Source: Proteobacteria bacterium UBA6900
GTDB taxonomy: Bacteria; Pseudomonadota; Gammaproteobacteria; Acidiferrobacterales; Sulfurifustaceae
Direction: 5' to 3'
Assembly (NCBI GenBank): GCA_002451215.1
Contig: DKBM01000006.1
Coordinates: forward strand, 3,495 to 66,844
Length of the DNA: 63,350 nucleotides
Positions within the stretch are counted from its first letter, which is position 1, and each line of letters starts with the position of its first letter. Positions 26,532 to 38,719 of this stretch are shown one piece after another. Both the position numbers and the translations under genes were made by a program. The notes under the pieces are model-generated. The model was given only the letters and a program-made list of their open reading frames with translations, searched no databases and was not told the origin of the DNA.

Positions 26532-28160
26532 ATGCGCAATTTTTTGAAGTCTGCCGCCGCCCGGCAGGTGCAGGGCAATGGCAGCTGGGAAGGGATCTTC
26601 CGACCTTCCGCGGCGGTGACTGGCGCCCTGGTCGCCGCGATCCTGCTCGCCACCTATTTCTTCTTGCTCACCTGGCGCGCCGATCCCCCTCTGCTTGATG
26701 GTGACGACGCCGTCTATGTGCTGATGGCTGACTTCTTTTCGCCATTCTCAGAACGTGACCGAGAGATTCTGGGATTGGTGATGCGGCGCAGCTATTTTCC
26801 GCCCCTGTATCCAATGTTGCTCGGCATGGTTGGCGGGATCGCGAGCAACACCCTTCTCGCCCACACAGTTAGTGTCACGATACTGTTCCTCGCGTTCATG
26901 GCATTGCTCGTGTGGGCGAACTCAATCAGCGAGCGCCCGATCGCCGCGACTTTACTCGTGATACTGGTTGCGATGTTGCCTGCGACCGTCTTTCAGTTGT
27001 TCGGCCTGTTGAGCGAGGGTCTCTACTTGGTCCTGACTCTCTTGGCGCTCTATGTTGCCAGTGGAGCTCCGCACGCCAAGCACTGGCAATATCTCGCTGC
27101 GGCCGCCATCGGCCTGGCTATCCTGTCGCGGACGGTCGGATTTGCGCTTTGGCTGGCATATGCCATTTGGCTTATATCAGGACGCCGTGACGGATGGAGA
27201 ACTCTGCCGCTACTCGCGCTCATCCCATGGTTCGCATGGAATATCTGGAAGTGGAGTCATGGGTATGCAGCGAGCTACACAGGCAATGTGTCGGATCTTC
27301 TTTCGCATCAGACATTGTGGAGTGTCGTCATAGAACAGCTATCCGTCGCCCCAATGAACATTTGGCGTGGCTGGGTTAGCAGTATCGATCATTTTGAAAT
27401 ACCGTTAGCCACGATAGGGGGGACAATCCTTGGCGCGATATGCATTGCCGGTTTAGCCAGAAGGCTTTTCCTGGGTAGTCTTGACGGTCTCTATGTCGCC
27501 ATCTATCTCGCCATGCTTTTGGTCTGGCCGTACTCCTATGAAGCGCGTCGACTGTTGTTTGTGGTGCTGCCAATTCTGCTGGTTCAAGGACTCGCGTTAG
27601 TAGAATGGGTTGGATTTCGAGCAGCGAAGTGGCCGATCCTGGGGAGGCAGGCTGGCACGGTCTATCTCGCCGTCGTTGGCATTGCGGCTCTGCCGGCGGT
27701 CGTCTCTATTCAGGGACGCTTCATTGCCGGTTTGCAGGACCCAAATCGACCCTACGCCGTTGCGGCGAGCTGGTATACCTACACCGACGTCAAGCGCGCC
27801 AAGGAACGTCTTGCGGAGCAGTCTGCGTTGGCGCGAGCTTGGCGCGAGCTGCATTCACACTTGAGTGCCGACGATTGTGTCTATCATCTCAAGCCCGTCG
27901 CTTTCATGCTGTACGCAGATCGACGAGCCTATGCGACACCGCATGCCCGGAACGCATCCGAATTCTGGGAGAAGGCCACACTTTGTCGCAATTTCTATCT
28001 TGGCGCATTTGTCTACCCGCCCTATCGCGAACCATTCTACCCCAAGCGTTTCCTGGGGTCGGGCGCTCGCGTGCTTTCCATCGACTATGTTGAAGAAGGC
28101 GGGCGGCGACGCCCACTCGGAATGCTCGTGCGTGCCGATTACCCATCAGATATCAATTGA
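26532..28160 (+). CDS. Polytopic membrane protein, GT-C-like glycosyltransferase candidate (paralog of 28897..30507)
   Basis: ORF track 26496..28160; ATG at 26532. More than 10 TM helices with acidic loop motif DGDDAVYVL after TM1, and a soluble C-terminal ~130 aa. Clear similarity to the next-but-one gene along the whole length. Confidence 0.65.
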
Positions 28161-28195
28161 GGAGCGATTGTGCAGCCTACCCGCTTGGAGGTGTC

Positions 28196-28900
28196 GTGAA
28201 CGATCCGGTGCTTTCTGTAGTGATCCCATGCTTCAACGAGCTTGGAACCGTCAGCGGCATTCTCGATGCGGTGCACGCCTCACCGTCTGGTCGCAAACAA
28301 GTCATCGTCGTTGATGACGCTTCCCGTGATGGAACCCGCCAGTTGCTGGAAGGGCCACTCCGTTCACGCATCGACCTGCTCATCTGCCACGAGCGCAACC
28401 AGGGGAAAGGGGCTGCCCTTCGAAGCGGGATCGCCGCTGCAACTGGAGATATCGTGATCATTCAGGACGCCGATCTTGAATATGATCCCAAGGAGTACGC
28501 CCGCCTTGTCAATCCTATTGTTGAAGGCAAGGCGGATGTTGTGTTTGGCAGCCGGTTCCATGGGCATGATCCCCATCGCGTATTGTACTTCTGGCACTAC
28601 GTGGGAAATCGTGCGCTGACGCTGCTGTCAAATATGTTTACCAACCTGAATCTTTCCGATATGGAGACATGCTACAAGGTGTTCCGGCGCGAAATGATTC
28701 AGGGCATCAAAATTGAGGAAGACCGGTTCGGATTCGAACCCGAGGTAACTGCGAAAATTGCGCGACTGCCGGGAGTCAGGATATTTGAGGTCGGAATTTC
28801 TTATTACGGTCGCACCTATGCCGAGGGCAAGAAGATCGGTTGGAAGGACGGGGTGCGGGCCATTTATTGCATCATCAAGTACGGGTTGTTCCGACGGTGA
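28196..28900 (+). CDS. GT2 glycosyltransferase, polyprenol-phosphate-sugar synthase (DPM1-like)
   Basis: ORF track 28157..28900. GTG at 28196 is preceded by GGAGG (28187-28191); TTG 28157, overlapping the upstream stop, is an alternative. [30 protein letters not shown].. Confidence 0.85.
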
Positions 28901-37036: not shown

Positions 37037-37836
37037 GGTGAGGTGGCGGGCGCTGCCGAGGTGGCGTGCGCCAGGACGATGAACCCGTCGCCCGCATCCG
37101 AATTGCGCGCGAGGTTCTGCACAAAGAAGAAGGGCCGCAATAGCGTTGCCCAGGGCAGGTGACGAAAGCTTCGGGCGAGCGATCGATCGACCCCGCTGCG
37201 CCGGGTTGCCGCCAGCGCGTCAAGGTGTTCGGCGCGGTTTCGCCGGAGATAATACAGCTGCCGCAGAGGAAAGGAGAGCGCGGTGATCGGGAATCCGTAA
37301 CAATGCAGCTGGTCGATGCGAAATGATCCACTCGTGAACTTCTCGAGTAGCTCGCGACGTTCGTATCGACGCACGTGACCGGCGTATTCGTCGACGCGTT
37401 GCCACTTTCGCATGAATGCCGGCGCCGAGAACAGAAAGTGGCCTCCCGACCGAAGCAGCCGGTGGACCGCGGCAAATGCCGGACGGTCATCGTTCAGGTG
37501 CTCGAACACCTCGCACGCGACGATCAAGTCGTAACCGCCGGAATCCGGCAGTTCCTGGAAATCGCCGTCCAATACCCGCAGGCGAGGTGTTTGACCCAGG
37601 CGCTTGCGTAGCAGGGCGGTAGAATCGGGTGAGAAGTCGATCAAGTCGCCGATGGAATCCGGAAACCGCCGCGAGAGGTAAAGACTGACATCGCCCAACC
37701 CTGGACCGATTTCCAGAAATCGAGCGGGGGGTTCGCGCAGCGTGCCGAGCATCTGTTCCAGCACGGCCAGCCGCATCAGGTAGCGCGGCGCAGGCGCGAC
37801 AACATCATCAAATATCGAAGGGTGACCCGGGCTCAT
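37033..37836 (-). CDS. Class I SAM-dependent methyltransferase
   Basis: FLEIGPGLGDVSLYL (motif I), YDLIVACEVFEHL; 4-nt overlap with the downstream GT4 gene. Confidence 0.8.
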   Translation of the reverse strand: MSPGHPSIFDDVVAPAPRYLMRLAVLEQMLGTLREPPARFLEIGPGLGDVSLYLSRRFPDSIGDLIDFSPDSTALLRKRLGQTPRLRVLDGDFQELPDSGGYDLIVACEVFEHLNDDRPAFAAVHRLLRSGGHFLFSAPAFMRKWQRVDEYAGHVRRYERRELLEKFTSGSFRIDQLHCYGFPITALSFPLRQLYYLRRNRAEHLDALAATRRSGVDRSLARSFRHLPWATLLRPFFFVQNLARNSDAGDGFIVLAHATSAAPATSP

Positions 37837-37843
37837 CGAGCAA

Positions 37844-38719
37844 CTATTGGTCAGTGTCGCGGTAATGCAGTGCCGTAATCTGTTCTGACACGAGACCGAT
37901 CAGAAAGACAAGCACTGCCGTGACCAGCAACAGTGCGCTCATGTTCGTGAATCGCTGTGAGGTGAGGTAGGTATAAGCATAGTAGCCGGCCCCGGTCAGA
38001 AAAAAGCTCAGGCTGATGGGCAAAAAGATTTTTAATGGCGAATAGAGCGTTCCGATCTTGAAGATGATGAGAAGAAAGCGGATGCCGTCGCGCAGTATTC
38101 GAACATGGCTTCGGCCAATCCGGCGCGGACTGACAATAGGGACATACGCCACACTGTAGCCGGCCCGGAAGAAACTCATTGTGATCGTGGTCGGATAGGA
38201 AAAGCCGTTCGGAAGCAGGTGCAGGAACTTGCGGAACTTCGCGGCCGACACGGCGCGGAAGCCGGAGGTCAGATCCGGGATCGGTTGTCCAACCATCCAG
38301 CTCGCGAGTCTGTTGTATAGGCGGTTCGCAATAGCACGGTGCATCCCTGCCTGTGAGCCCGAGGTGCGCGCCCCGACGACCATGTCGTATCCGGAGGACA
38401 ACTGCTGCAGAAGTTGTGAGACGTGTTCCGGAGAGTGCTGGGTATCGGCATCCATGAACACAATCACTTGGCCTTTTGCTGCACGGGCTCCGGTCTTGAT
38501 TGCCGCGCCGTTGCCCTTTCCGTAGGCATGTTTGATAACCCGCGCACCGTGCTCGGTCGCGACTGATACGGTTTCGTCGACCGAACCATCATCGACAACG
38601 ACAATCTCGGCATCGGGGTGTTGTTGCTGCAGGGCCGGCAAGACACGGCGAAGACCGTCGGCCTCATTTCGGGCCGGCAAGACGATTGACAGTGCTGGGT
38701 GTTTGTCGGGGTTGCTCAT
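37844..38719 (-). CDS. GT2 polyprenol-phosphate glycosyltransferase (GtrB/ArnC-like, two C-terminal TM helices)
   Basis: ORF track 37844..38851; ATG at 38719 (MSNPDKHPALSIVLPARNE). VVVDDGSVDET, FMDADTQHSPE. C-terminal helices FFLTGAGYYAYTYL and LLLVTAVLVFLIGLVSEQI. Confidence 0.85.
   Translation of the reverse strand: MSNPDKHPALSIVLPARNEADGLRRVLPALQQQHPDAEIVVVDDGSVDETVSVATEHGARVIKHAYGKGNGAAIKTGARAAKGQVIVFMDADTQHSPEHVSQLLQQLSSGYDMVVGARTSGSQAGMHRAIANRLYNRLASWMVGQPIPDLTSGFRAVSAAKFRKFLHLLPNGFSYPTTITMSFFRAGYSVAYVPIVSPRRIGRSHVRILRDGIRFLLIIFKIGTLYSPLKIFLPISLSFFLTGAGYYAYTYLTSQRFTNMSALLLVTAVLVFLIGLVSEQITALHYRDTDQ

Follow-up and report, generated by a model that had tools for sequence, protein, structure and literature searches.

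Pilins of Pseudomonas aeruginosa group IV (Pa5196/PA7) are arabinosylated by a cassette centered on TfpW, a 646-aa protein with 11 membrane helices, a periplasmic TPR domain, and an essential DDX motif in loop 1, whose gene directly follows pilA and which uses a polyprenol-phosphate monosaccharide as donor (bioRxiv 10.1101/2020.04.19.049825; PMC11194591). A terminator after the pilin gene has been described as a hallmark of pilin-accessory cassettes (PMC11841053). In archaea, AglD is a fusion of a GT2 and a UPF0104 domain, and UPF0104 genes neighbor PMT/STT3-like genes (PMC5898192); for stand-alone UPF0104 proteins, flippase activity is predicted but not demonstrated (PMC12713373). The window analyzed here is a stretch of 63,350 nucleotides (63 kb) from an uncultured gammaproteobacterium, available as a metagenome-assembled genome.

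Ten ORFs at 26532-38719 lie in two convergent blocks, g1-g4 on the plus and g5-g10 on the minus strand (Table 1), at positions identical to those of the public gene calls for the same contig. The sequence-only reading had described ten genes in this arrangement, and all of its coordinates were reproduced, as were all of its domain calls for the block (Pfam, NCBIfam), including three GT2 domains of the polyprenol-phosphate-sugar synthase type, three methyltransferase domains, and one GT4 (GT-B) enzyme. The ten genes are part of the same unit as the pilin module and not separate from it. The comparison of the whole block across genomes, which had been proposed together with its contiguity with the pilin module, revealed that the 18.9 kb from tRNA-Ala (26270) to pilA (45181) form a single variable island of the replacement type, whose flanks are conserved in at least 5 related genomes. 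On the left, the flank consists of the ccm operon and tRNA-Arg/tRNA-Ala, a pair that also adjoins ccmA in L007, L008, and L021, while tRNA-Ala is the island end in L005 and L089 as well; on the right, it consists of pilA-pilR-pilS-tRNA-Pro-ispB. The gene content of the island differs across L005, L007, L008, L021, and L089, and the flanks are kept. Furthermore, GC3 is 0.62-0.72 for island genes compared to 0.70-0.78 for the flanks. The conserved core comprises pilA, its terminator hairpin, the three membrane+TPR paralogs t1-t3, and the GT2 g10. It is worth noting that richness in GT-C enzymes recurs in this island family, so that the GT-C ratio, previously called unusual, is not unique to the window.

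Table 1. Features of the island and its boundaries, with positions in the window.
Feature	Position	Strand	Evidence
tRNA-Arg(CCT), island left boundary, adjoins ccmA	25937..26012	-	ARAGORN
tRNA-Ala(CGC), left boundary of variable island	26195..26270	-	ARAGORN
g1, putative GT-C-type membrane glycosyltransferase, g1/g3 family, module D	26532..28160	+	542 aa; g3 paralogy
g2, soluble GT2, polyprenol-phosphate-sugar synthase type, module D	28196..28900	+	PF00535, 107 bits
g3, GT-C glycosyltransferase, g1/g3 family, module D	28897..30507	+	PMT_2, 29.8 bits (cutoff 26.1)
g4, PMT_2-type GT-C glycosyltransferase, proposed module C partner	30504..32138	+	PMT_2, 37.6 bits (cutoff 26.1)
g5, FkbM-family methyltransferase	32167..33018	-	PF05050, 85 bits; TIGR01444, 97.6 bits
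g6, bifunctional class I SAM methyltransferase + GT2 (polyprenol-phosphate-sugar synthase type), module C	33044..34459	-	Pfam/NCBIfam
g7, UPF0104/LPG_synthase_TM protein, flippase candidate	34452..35516	-	PF03706, 158 bits; TIGR00374
g8, GT4 (GT-B) glycosyltransferase, module B	35819..37036	-	Glyco_trans_1_4, Glycos_transf_1, WcaI-subfamily matches
g9, class I SAM methyltransferase, module B	37033..37836	-	Methyltransf_12/23/25/11
g10, GtrB/ArnC/DPMS-like GT2, module A	37844..38719	-	PF00535, 116 bits
t1, TfpW-like, multi-pass membrane domain + C-terminal TPR, module A	38766..40901	-	AlphaFold, pLDDT 88.3
t2, TfpW-like paralog	40905..43010 (longest ORF to 43094)	-	TPR_19
t3, TfpW-like paralog, first gene after pilA	42994..44952 (longest ORF to 45057)	-	TPR_19, 39 bits
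Terminator-like hairpin directly 3' of pilA	45131..45162	-	14-bp stem, 8 G-C pairs, T run
pilA, major type IV pilin, proposed acceptor	45181..45621	-	Pilin and N_methyl Pfam matches
Sigma-54-type promoter-like site TGGCACGGGAAGTGCA, upstream of pilA	45846..45861	-	1 mismatch to TGGCAC-N5-TTGCW; consensus match only

At the pilin end of the island, pilR and pilS lie directly upstream of pilA, which encodes a protein of 146 aa with zero cysteines (alignment, cysteine count). The strong hairpin terminator after pilA is followed by t3-t2-t1-g10-g9-g8, where no overlap or gap exceeds 46 bp, and the island thereby matches the described layout of pilA, terminator, and accessory genes (PMC11841053). 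The proteins t1-t3 are mutual paralogs (35-38% identity; t2 against t1, 35%, E 5e-113; t3 against t1, 38%, E 2e-90), and the order pilA-t3-t2-t1 is the same in L005, L007, and L021. The AlphaFold model of t1 retrieved the GT-C folds of Pmt4 (9i5k_A) and STT3 (8age_A) among TPR matches, with moderate TM-scores of 0.35-0.48, and at least 90% of family members share Asp44-Asp45 after membrane helix 1. No Pfam model matched the membrane domain of this family, neither DUF1736 nor PMT_2 was present in any of 35 members, and there was no profile similarity to the g1/g3 family. The earlier label "TMTC-like" therefore describes architecture only, and P. aeruginosa TfpW is the closer analogue.

Among the plus-strand genes, the AlphaFold model of g3 (pLDDT 89.6) yielded exclusively GT-C enzymes as top matches in a PDB fold search (STT3, ArnT, PglB, ALG9/12, AftD, Pmt4); Asp46 in loop 1 of g3 is invariant. 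Neither Pfam nor NCBIfam gave a match for g1 itself, but the protein is paralogous to g3 over its full length (31% identity, E 5e-55) with about 9 hydrophobic segments and an acidic "DGDD" in the first loop, and it is solely through this paralogy that it can be proposed as a GT-C enzyme. About 9 hydrophobic segments were likewise found in g4, with "HPDE" after the first one. Of the six GT-C candidates initially listed, g3 and g4 are backed by PMT_2 and g1 by its paralog; for t1-t3, the TMTC label is not supported at the level of the protein family. The best solved relatives common to all three GT2 domains are Pyrococcus dolichol-P-mannose synthase (DPMS, 5mlz), ArnC, and GtrB: g2 matches 5mlz (E 1.6e-13, residues 6-229) and ArnC best, the C-terminal GT2 half of g6 matches 5mlz with E 1.2e-14, and g10, which has two C-terminal hydrophobic segments, matches 5mlz, ArnC, and GtrB with E 2.5e-14, 4e-13, and 3.8e-11, respectively. 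In module B, g8 has one N-terminal hydrophobic segment and overlaps g9 by 4 bp.

The analysis of other genomes suggests that these genes fall into three GT2-to-GT-C modules, namely g10 with t1-t3, g6/g7 with g4, and g2 with g1/g3. In the first, g10 is a conserved partner of TfpW-like genes, with orthologs (52-65% identity) adjoining t-type genes in L005-L008, L011, L015, L021, L034, L042, and L045. Orthologs of g2 (62-78% identity) occur beside g1/g3-like genes in 15 of 80 species-representative loci, as well as in L005, L007, and L008. For g6, more than 120 full-length homologs were found in several phyla (59-96% identity); its proposed pairing with g4 is based on a Desulfovibrionales isolate (L091), in which the two genes after a g6 ortholog (62% identity) encode a methyltransferase and a PMT_2-LPG_synthase_TM fusion protein, in this order. 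The g1/g3 family is small (30 matches among 5.8 billion proteins). Of its loci in species-representative genomes with full 10-kb flanks, 13 of 32 have pilA, TfpW-like genes, or pilRS within 10 kb, compared to a position-only expectation estimated at about 0.5%, and these pilin-linked loci include that of the cultured Nevskia soli DSM 19509. The g6/g7 and g2+g1/g3 modules are also found elsewhere without pilin genes, the g6 module lying amid housekeeping genes in Desulfovibrionales and Nitrospira.

The most likely function of the island is pilin O-glycosylation from undecaprenyl-phosphate monosaccharides, accompanied by methylation. We give about an even chance to the explanation as a whole, according to which a glycosylation island accessory to the pilin has g1-g10 as its variable portion and comprises three GT2-to-GT-C modules after the pattern of the "three-component" systems (GtrABC, Arn). 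Housekeeping nucleotide sugars would supply the monosaccharides that g10, g2, and the C-terminal GT2 half of g6 load onto undecaprenyl phosphate on the cytoplasmic side; the lipid-linked sugar would be O-methylated by the other half of g6, and perhaps also by g9 and g5, and a second sugar may come from g8. The lipid-linked sugars would then be flipped to the periplasmic face by g7, where t1-t3, fed by g10, would join the sugar to Ser/Thr of PilA, and g1 and g3 (fed by g2) as well as g4 (fed by g6) would extend or decorate the glycan. If this is true, the pilus would be coated with partly methylated sugars. While the make-up of GT2, GT-C, methyltransferase, and flippase-like functions described by the sequence-only reading stands, its strictly stepwise periplasmic addition is only one possible route: g8 and the soluble methyltransferases fit some lipid-carrier assembly at the cytoplasmic face equally well, and the related island L089 has a ligase-type Wzy_C gene. 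Against the explanation as a whole stand the moderate GT-C fold matches of the t family, whose membrane domain is without Pfam match or profile similarity to the g1/g3 family and which keeps only Y-x6-P of the YX6PFX7P motif of TfpW, the opposite strand of g1-g4, and the occurrence of the g2+g1/g3 and g6 modules away from pilin genes.

The locus does not encode a conventional pathway of the Wzx/Wzy, ABC, or PglL type. Searches of the 63-kb window gave no gene for Wzx, Wzy, Wzy_C, a Bac_transf/WecA initiating transferase, a polysaccharide ABC exporter, or NDP-sugar synthesis, and its ORFs without a Pfam match have only 0-4 hydrophobic segments. The absence of these functions, noted earlier, thus extends to the whole window, and a missed Wzy/WaaL or initiating PGT, which would have indicated a conventional polysaccharide cluster, was not found there. 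In the related island L089, a Wzy_C gene (PglL/TfpO-type, ligase-type) is located right after the three t genes, and therefore pilin glycosylation is also indicated as a theme.

Because module D and the g6 enzyme also occur away from pilin genes, an envelope glycan is a possible acceptor. Here, g1-g10 would be Gtr-like side-chain systems acting on an LPS O-antigen or core, or on an exopolysaccharide whose genes lie elsewhere in the genome, and they would be found near pilA just because this tRNA-flanked site is prone to receive glycan islands. The tRNA genes bounding the island are in line with this, as are the 19 of 32 full-flank g1/g3-type loci without nearby pilin genes and the opposite strand of g1-g4, which are therefore not co-transcribed with pilA. 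Furthermore, three-component systems are best known from O-antigen modification (PMC11127046), and in L010 (Methylophilaceae), a classical polysaccharide cluster encoding a Bac_transf initiating transferase, a sugar epimerase, and a MurJ/Wzx-like protein ends in a g2+g3-type pair and GtrA. However, we consider an envelope acceptor doubtful, since g1/g3-type genes recur beside pilA and TfpW-like genes in distant orders, far above expectation, the tRNA-Ala/pilA interval is exchanged as one unit among relatives, and the window lacks polysaccharide backbone genes. A glycolipid pathway like that of P. aeruginosa gpgSDF, with a glycosylated phospholipid produced and flipped by g8 and g7, is very improbable: although GpgS is a GT4 and GpgF a UPF0104 protein encoded in one operon (PMC12713373), and g8 adjoins g7, these two genes are 302 bp apart, a deacetylase gene is absent, and the conserved partner of g7 is g6, as seen from their 8-bp overlap, a UPF0104 domain that adjoins the homolog of g6 in both L005 and L008, and the fusion-type context in L091.

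Two further alternatives concern how, and to which proteins, sugars would be transferred. In an unlikely scenario resembling archaeal Agl glycosylation, a short oligosaccharide would be assembled on undecaprenyl monophosphate at the cytoplasmic face, started by g10, extended by g8, and methylated by g9/g5, before being flipped by g7 and transferred en bloc by a TfpW-like enzyme, with only the final sugars added in the periplasm. Precedents are known from Haloferax, in which AglP methylates a dolichol-linked sugar and AglS adds the last mannose from Dol-P-Man. The soluble GT4 and methyltransferases of the block and the UPF0104 domain at the C-terminus of AglD (PMC5898192) would agree with such a route. 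AglJ (TIGR04182) is the best NCBIfam match for all three GT2 domains, but with 104-140 bits it scores far under the family cutoff of 325; moreover, an STT3/AglB-type gene is absent, six GT-C genes exceed the needs of an en-bloc route, and TfpW is thought to use single lipid-linked sugars (bioRxiv 10.1101/2020.04.19.049825). Quite unlikely, too, is general protein O-glycosylation, with the TPR-bearing GT-C enzymes acting in a PMT/TMTC-like manner on many periplasmic or outer-membrane proteins and pilin being one substrate or none. A multi-pass membrane domain with TPR is common to TMTC proteins (PMC7801869), some homologs carry the JGI label "protein O-mannosyl-transferase", the membrane domain belongs to a very large family (19,596 clusters at 50% identity), and the fixed order of the three t paralogs suggests different substrates. 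Against this stand the lack of DUF1736 and PMT_2 in the t family and the strict adjacency of t-type genes to pilA in every context read.

Compared with known systems, the island shares with the TfpO/PglL O-oligosaccharyltransferase system the pilin-adjacent accessory genes for pilin glycosylation, including Wzy_C in L089, but the window lacks both Wzy_C and the genes of an undecaprenyl-diphosphate oligosaccharide pathway. With eukaryotic TMTC1-4/PMT and DPM1, it has in common a membrane GT-C domain followed by TPR on the non-cytoplasmic side and probably a lipid-phosphate-sugar donor from a DPM1-type GT2, a likeness of architecture only. The island recalls archaeal Agl N-glycosylation (AglJ/AglD, AglP, AglS) in its presumed use of monophosphate lipid carriers, in the link between a GT2 and a UPF0104 domain, in a methyltransferase that would act on the lipid-linked sugar, and in a PMT-like GT-C probably supplied by a lipid-phosphate donor, whereas the present system is bacterial, and its linkage, to pilin, would be of the O-type. 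In the three-component systems GtrA/GtrB/GtrC, ArnC/ArnEF/ArnT, and CsbB/GtcA/YfhO and the pentofuranose systems of Kelly et al. 2024, a GT2 or equivalent likewise forms a lipid-phosphate monosaccharide, which is flipped and transferred by a GT-C enzyme outside the cytoplasm, and L010 has its g2+g3-type pair beside GtrA; in the island, however, the UPF0104 protein is the sole flippase candidate in place of GtrA, SMR, or MATE proteins, three modules lie close together, one of the synthases carries a fused methyltransferase domain, and the acceptor is likely a protein, not a polysaccharide. The likeness to TfpW, by architecture and position, includes a GT-C-type protein of about 11 membrane helices with a C-terminal TPR domain, encoded directly after pilA and its terminator, an acidic DD motif in the first periplasmic loop, and, presumably, a polyprenol-phosphate monosaccharide donor used outside the cytoplasm. 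Unlike the TfpW cassette, the island is without D-arabinofuranose genes (DprE1/DprE2/phosphoribosyltransferase) and TfpX, has three paralogs in fixed order instead of one gene, and itself encodes GT2 donor synthases, three extra GT-C enzymes, three methyltransferase domains, and a GT4. The island is an elaborate form of an already known type of system and not a new type.

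The domain content of the ten glycosylation and methylation genes, g1 to g10, is as the sequence-only reading had assigned it, with Pfam and NCBIfam reproducing each assignment and g1 alone lacking a family match of its own. GT2 domains are present in g2, g6, and g10, PMT_2 scores above cutoff in g3 and g4 (37.6 bits for g4), FkbM is found in g5, class I methyltransferase domains in g6 and g9, LPG_synthase_TM/UPF0104 in g7, and GT4 in g8, while g1 aligns with its paralog g3 over the full length (31% identity, E 5e-55). The three GT2 domains (g10, g2, and the C-terminal half of g6, all matching PF00535) have the Pyrococcus dolichol-phosphate-mannose synthase (DPMS, 5mlz), ArnC, and GtrB as their closest solved relatives, and the alignment covers the whole catalytic unit for g2 and g6; g10 carries two hydrophobic segments at its C terminus besides the GT2 domain. 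The methyltransferases g5, g6, and g9 show, on reading of their sequences, neither membrane segments nor signal peptides.

Searches of the t1, g3, and g4 sequences against solved structures matched nothing beyond TPR repeats, and profile searches with alignments A1 and A2 likewise returned only TPR repeats; we therefore relied on fold prediction. The AlphaFold model of g3, built from 24 relatives (pLDDT 89.6, pTM 0.90), has GT-C enzymes as all of its first 29 fold matches (STT3, ArnT, PglB, ALG9, ALG12, AftD, DPY19, Pmt, and AftB), and Asp46 in its first external loop is invariant in the family alignment. The three genes t1 to t3, which lie between g10 and pilA, are mutually paralogous (35-38% identity). 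The model of t1 (pLDDT 88.3) consists of a multi-helix membrane domain to approximately residue 430 with TPR helices after it, in agreement with TPR Pfam matches. A whole-protein fold search with t1, which took in the TPR part and the membrane domain together, retrieved mostly TPR proteins; its GT-C fold matches were Pmt4 (9i5k_A, TM-score 0.48 on the target) and STT3 (8age_A, 6ezn_F), with a probability of 1.0 and TM-scores of 0.35-0.48. Fold matches, motifs, and analogy together provide moderate evidence that t1-t3 may be GT-C enzymes. Since a profile-profile comparison revealed no relationship between the t family and the g1/g3 family, the six GT-C candidates represent at least three unrelated families.

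The sequence-only reading had described t1-t3 as TMTC-like, which is appropriate for their architecture but not at the family level: none of 35 t-family members matches DUF1736 or PMT_2 in Pfam at E up to 0.1, whereas true TMTC proteins match DUF1736 at E < 1e-30 (PMC7801869). The TMTC family label was therefore dropped. The t-family membrane domain, for which there is no Pfam model, by itself delimits a very large family, represented by 19,596 clusters at 50% identity (E up to 0.001), or 4,855 at E up to 1e-30. A better analogue is TfpW of Pseudomonas aeruginosa group IV, to which t1-t3 are likened by its published features and not by its sequence. TfpW (646 aa, 11 predicted membrane helices) has its C-terminal TPR domain in the periplasm and carries in loop 1 a DDX motif that is essential; its gene directly follows pilA, and the enzyme moves D-arabinofuranose to pilin Ser/Thr from a donor thought to be polyprenol-phosphate-linked (bioRxiv 10.1101/2020.04.19.049825; PMC11194591). 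Similarly, t1 has a multi-pass N-terminal domain, putatively GT-C, and a C-terminal TPR domain, and the genes t1-t3 come right behind pilA and its terminator in an accessory cassette, a pilA-adjacent layout also found in the homologous loci L005, L006, L007, L021, L089, and L090 of other genomes. A DDX-type motif of periplasmic loop 1 is present as F/Y-V-F/L-D-D after the first membrane helix (FVFDD, FVLDD, and YVFDD in t1-t3), with Asp44 and Asp45 kept in at least 90% of the 35 members. Of the YX6PFX7P motif of TfpW, however, the family retains Y297-x6-P304 but neither the PF nor the distal P. A further difference is the donor: DprE1, DprE2, and polyprenyl phosphoribosyltransferase domains were not found in the 63-kb window, and a D-arabinofuranose system was accordingly rejected.

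The absence of polysaccharide-pathway genes, noted earlier from motifs, holds throughout the 63-kb window, which is part of the genome: it contains no Bac_transf/WecA-type initiating transferase, no Wzx, Wzy, or Wzy_C (WaaL/PglL), no polysaccharide ABC exporter, and no nucleotide-sugar enzyme, and a conventional O-antigen cluster was rejected on these grounds. The five ORFs without a family match have 0-4 hydrophobic segments each and are thus unlike a hidden polymerase, and murJ is a separate gene outside the island (see table). GtrA-, SMR (ArnEF)-, or MATE-type flippases were not found among the called island genes; g7 is the only flippase candidate in the island, its activity being predicted from its UPF0104 domain. 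This domain is the flippase domain of MprF, and stand-alone members have been proposed as lipid flippases, as yet unproven (bioRxiv 10.1101/2022.03.11.483950; PMC12713373).

Features of the window and of homologous loci with their coordinates
Feature	Position	Strand	Context
ORF without Pfam match	59-1015	+	apparent paralog of the ORF at 4815-6215
ORF without Pfam match	4815-6215	+	apparent paralog of the ORF at 59-1015
525-aa ORF without family match	16005-17582	-	between valS and pepA
tRNA-Arg(CCT)	25937-26012	-	between ccmA and g1
tRNA-Ala(CGC)	26195-26270	-	between ccmA and g1
g1-g10	26532-38719	g1-g4 +, g5-g10 -	glycosylation/methylation genes
t1-t3	38766-44952	-	between g10 and pilA
pilA	45181-45621	-	
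sigma-54-type promoter-like site	45846-45861	-	upstream of pilA
murJ	54052-55656		among housekeeping genes
Wzy_C (O-antigen ligase/PglL/TfpO-type) gene, 653 aa	L089:12089-14050		directly after three t genes
PMT_2 + LPG_synthase_TM/UPF0104 fusion, 780 aa	L091:10173-12515		two genes downstream of g6 ortholog, among housekeeping genes

The ten ORFs form two convergent blocks at exactly the positions placed by the sequence-only reading, and an artefact of ORF calling was rejected, as public gene calls exist for 10 of 10 genes and family matches above cutoff for all but g1. On the left, the genes are preceded by valS, pepA, lptF, lptG, an RDD protein, a DsbE-like redoxin, ccmEDCBA, tRNA-Arg, and tRNA-Ala; g1-g10 and t1-t3 are followed by pilA, pilR, pilS, tRNA-Pro, and ispB and, farther right, by rplU, rpmA, obg, proB, rpsT, murJ, ribF, ileS, lspA, ispH, a FimT-like pilin gene, and pilY1. 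The window belongs to a metagenome contig of 106.9 kb (ERZ925369, k127_451793). A search of 5.8 billion proteins found one window protein 100% identical to a protein of the bin 'Thiotrichales bacterium SG8_50', and relatives of the neighbouring genes belong mostly to Sulfuricaulis, Gallionella- and Burkholderiales-labelled bins, and unnamed Gammaproteobacteria. Elsewhere in the window, the two apparently paralogous ORFs near its start share clearly similar stretches (e.g., ...NR..S.YRG...LLE.K.D..P..P..CPVL.DRRT.L.QY...L.H....) and enclose genes for a dienelactone hydrolase, a CbiM-like protein, and a thioredoxin/HEAT protein. The 525-aa ORF is very acidic, of low complexity, and rich in Pro/Glu/Ala/Thr, with only its last ~60 residues ordinary-looking.

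The stretch from tRNA-Ala to pilA (18.9 kb) constitutes a variable island, whose structure is known here from 63 kb of one uncultured organism's genome and from gene neighbourhoods read in approximately 90 loci chosen by similarity. Directly after pilA there is a hairpin with a 14-bp stem and a T run; pilin-accessory cassettes have been described as typically carrying a terminator at this place, which is thought to govern how much accessory protein is made relative to pilin (PMC11841053). Along the minus strand, t3, t2, t1, g10, g9, and g8 overlap or are separated by gaps of ≤46 bp, followed by a 302-bp gap between g8 and g7, an 8-bp overlap (g7/g6), and a 25-bp gap (g6/g5). The sequence TGGCACGGGAAGTGCA, approximately 225 bp upstream of the pilA start and downstream of pilR and pilS, resembles a sigma-54-type promoter with one mismatch; as such matches are common across the window (49 found vs 34 expected when 2 mismatches are allowed), it represents a lead only.

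In related contigs, ccmA, tRNA-Arg, and tRNA-Ala on one side and pilA, pilR, pilS, tRNA-Pro, and ispB on the other form conserved flanks, with flank proteins 57-78% identical, while the 11-19 kb between them differ in content. The island edge is marked by the tRNA-Arg(CCT)/tRNA-Ala(CGC) pair in L007, L008, and L021 and by tRNA-Ala in L005 and L089, and GC3 is 0.62-0.72 in the island genes vs 0.70-0.78 in the flanks. L005 (Sulfuricaulis) has the same families as the island in a rearranged form, L007 has three g1/g3-type genes, L008 an additional UDP-GlcNAc 2-epimerase-type gene, L006 asparagine synthase, radical SAM, and other methyltransferase genes, and L090 two t genes with three further PMT-like proteins. 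In L089, a Wzy_C gene follows three TfpW-like genes, and thus two different pilin-glycosylation enzyme types may coexist in its cassette. L005, L007, and L021 retain the order pilA-t3-t2-t1-g10, indicating that the triplication of the t genes is old and that each copy has stayed in its place. The window PilA (C-terminal end VPTKYRPKN) contains no cysteine and therefore lacks the usual C-terminal disulfide loop. Cysteine-free pilins also occur in L005, L006, L007, and L021, the four related loci with three TfpW-like genes. In other lineages, where pilA adjoins one or two TfpW-like genes, the pilins contain the usual pair of cysteines.

The island genes sort into three modules that pair a GT2 with GT-C enzymes (A, C, and D) and a further gene pair, module B. 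In module A (t3-t2-t1-g10), the g10 ortholog (52-65% identity) adjoins t-type genes in ten other loci; module B (g9-g8) combines a methyltransferase with a GT4. Module C comprises g7-g6-g5, with g4 as convergent neighbour. Its g6 family, named 'bifunctional class I SAM-dependent methyltransferase/glycosyltransferase family 2' by NCBI, is widespread and strongly conserved, with >120 full-length relatives of 59-96% identity, among them proteins of Sulfuricaulis, Nitrospira, Candidatus Acidoferrum, and Desulfocurvus. In the Desulfovibrionales isolate GCA_000519125.1 (L091), a methyltransferase gene and, behind it, the gene of the fusion protein listed in the table come next after a g6 ortholog (62%), in what looks like a compact, self-contained three-component system. 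As BLASTP matches are weak between g7 and the UPF0104 half of the fusion (E 9e-5) and not significant between g4 and its PMT_2 half, the fusion ties the three functions together at the domain level only. A comparable link has been predicted for archaea, where UPF0104 forms the C-terminal domain of AglD and occurs beside PMT/STT3-like genes (PMC5898192).

Module D (g1-g2-g3) includes the small g1/g3 family, which had 30 matches in 5.8 billion proteins and 135 relatives among species-representative genomes. An ortholog of g2 (62-78% identity) was found beside a GT-C gene in 15 of 80 loci read, as well as in L005, L007, and L008. Flanks of 10 kb were complete at 32 loci, and at 13 of these pilA, a t-type gene, or pilRS lies no more than 10 kb from a g1/g3-type gene; this is a strong enrichment, because approximately 0.5% would be expected by position (our estimate of the share of a 20-kb span in a 4-Mb genome). 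These pilin-linked loci come from Nevskia-, Lysobacterales/Lysobacteraceae-, Burkholderiales-, Gallionella-, and Thiotrichaceae-labelled bins. A related pilA-linked island is present in the cultured Nevskia soli DSM 19509 (L019, NZ_JONR01000007.1), where pilA is accompanied by two t-type genes and two g3-type genes, a g2 ortholog (68%) and another GT2, and two methyltransferases, together with a DedA/VTT protein and two further membrane proteins of 8 segments that lack Pfam matches; a second g3-type gene of this strain lies at another locus (L030). Module D also occurs outside pilin loci: in a Methylophilaceae genome (L010) it comes after GtrA and closes a cluster that also encodes a GT4, a Bac_transf initiating transferase, a MurJ/Wzx-like protein, and a sugar epimerase, and Usitatibacter genomes carry it without pilin genes in the range read.

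The kinds of enzyme, the way they pair in genomes, and the structure of the island are observed; from them we infer a mechanism of pilin glycosylation from lipid-linked monosaccharides, with methylation and extension. Each GT2 would load a monosaccharide, supplied by a housekeeping nucleotide sugar, onto undecaprenyl phosphate, and the methyltransferase half of g6, perhaps with g9 and g5, would methylate the carrier-linked sugar at the cytoplasmic face. A second sugar may be added by g8, g7 would flip the products, t1-t3 would glycosylate PilA, and g1, g3, and g4 would extend or decorate the glycan. Taken as a whole, this statement seems to us evenly balanced between right and wrong. As rough estimates for its parts, the lipid-carrier monosaccharide chemistry is highly probable, and pilin as the acceptor stands at about the midpoint between likely and unlikely.

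The rival explanations differ from this mechanism mainly in acceptor or topology, the enzyme inventory being the same under all of them. That the block modifies LPS or EPS made elsewhere and merely has a tRNA hot spot in common with pilA fits the tRNA genes at the island edge and module D away from pilin genes; set against the enrichment of g1/g3-type genes near pilin genes, we regard it as unlikely, though the most serious of the rivals. Partly cytoplasmic assembly with en-bloc transfer, as in archaeal Agl pathways, appears improbable. In its favour, the UPF0104 domain of g7 is also the C-terminal part of archaeal AglD; on the other side, the GT2 domains score 104-140 bits with the AglJ equivalog TIGR04182, below the cutoff of 325 that would mark archaeal AglJ/AglD hexose synthases. 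Slightly more improbable still are many protein substrates instead of pilin alone, given how regularly the t genes adjoin pilA, and we give very little credence to g8 and g7, adjacent as they are, being a gpgSDF-like glycolipid pair.

Beyond the proposed pilin glycosylation from lipid-linked monosaccharides, a bolder version is offered as a tentative and rather unlikely extension: the pilin would receive a methylated hetero-oligosaccharide assembled wholly outside the cytoplasm, with six GT-C enzymes adding sugar after sugar. The glycan would be started or positioned by three sub-functionalised TfpW-like enzymes and extended by g1, g3, and g4, one donor being methylated on its lipid carrier by the methyltransferase-GT2 fusion and flipped by the UPF0104 protein. 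If true, the pathway would represent a protein-directed equivalent of the eukaryotic lumenal ALG3/9/12 steps and the first demonstrated case of a stand-alone UPF0104 protein acting as a polyprenol-phosphate-sugar flippase.

To our knowledge, pilin glycosylation is known in detail for two enzyme types only, TfpO/PglL and TfpW. Our findings, which a specialist would call plausible rather than astonishing, suggest that TfpW-like enzymes use ordinary GT2-made lipid-phosphate sugars and not arabinofuranose alone, that they head a hypervariable, O-antigen-like diversity locus for pili, and that such loci occur among environmental Gammaproteobacteria as well as in Gallionella-, Burkholderiales-, and Usitatibacter-labelled lineages. 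Pilin glycosylation shields bacteria from pilus-specific phages (bioRxiv 10.1101/150227), and multi-GT-C three-component loci in Xanthomonas and Bacillus have been noted as unexplained by Kelly et al. (PMC11127046). The questions raised concern the donors of the TfpW family, UPF0104 flippases, and the methyltransferase-GT2 fusion; the island offers for testing three synthase/GT-C pairings, a flippase role for UPF0104, and a widespread fusion, and the cultured Nevskia soli DSM 19509 makes such tests practical.

With the three-component Gtr/Arn systems, the island shares GT2 enzymes of the polyprenol-phosphate-sugar synthase type (g10, g2, and the C-terminal half of g6) and GT-C-fold transferases with an acidic residue in the first external loop (Asp46 in g3; g4 is placed here by PMT_2 and g1 by its paralogy to g3), but the dedicated GtrA/SMR/MATE flippase of those systems is absent from its called genes. 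It is not a member of the TMTC family, not a D-arabinofuranose system, and, as judged by the genes absent from the 63-kb window, not a Wzx/Wzy or PglL pathway. By analogy, the system would combine the workings of two known arrangements, a TfpW cassette and Gtr/Arn-type three-component systems. New here are the fixed triplet of TfpW-like genes, the donor-synthase GT2s inside the island, one of them fused to a methyltransferase, the three further GT-C enzymes, and the hypervariable content between fixed flanks.
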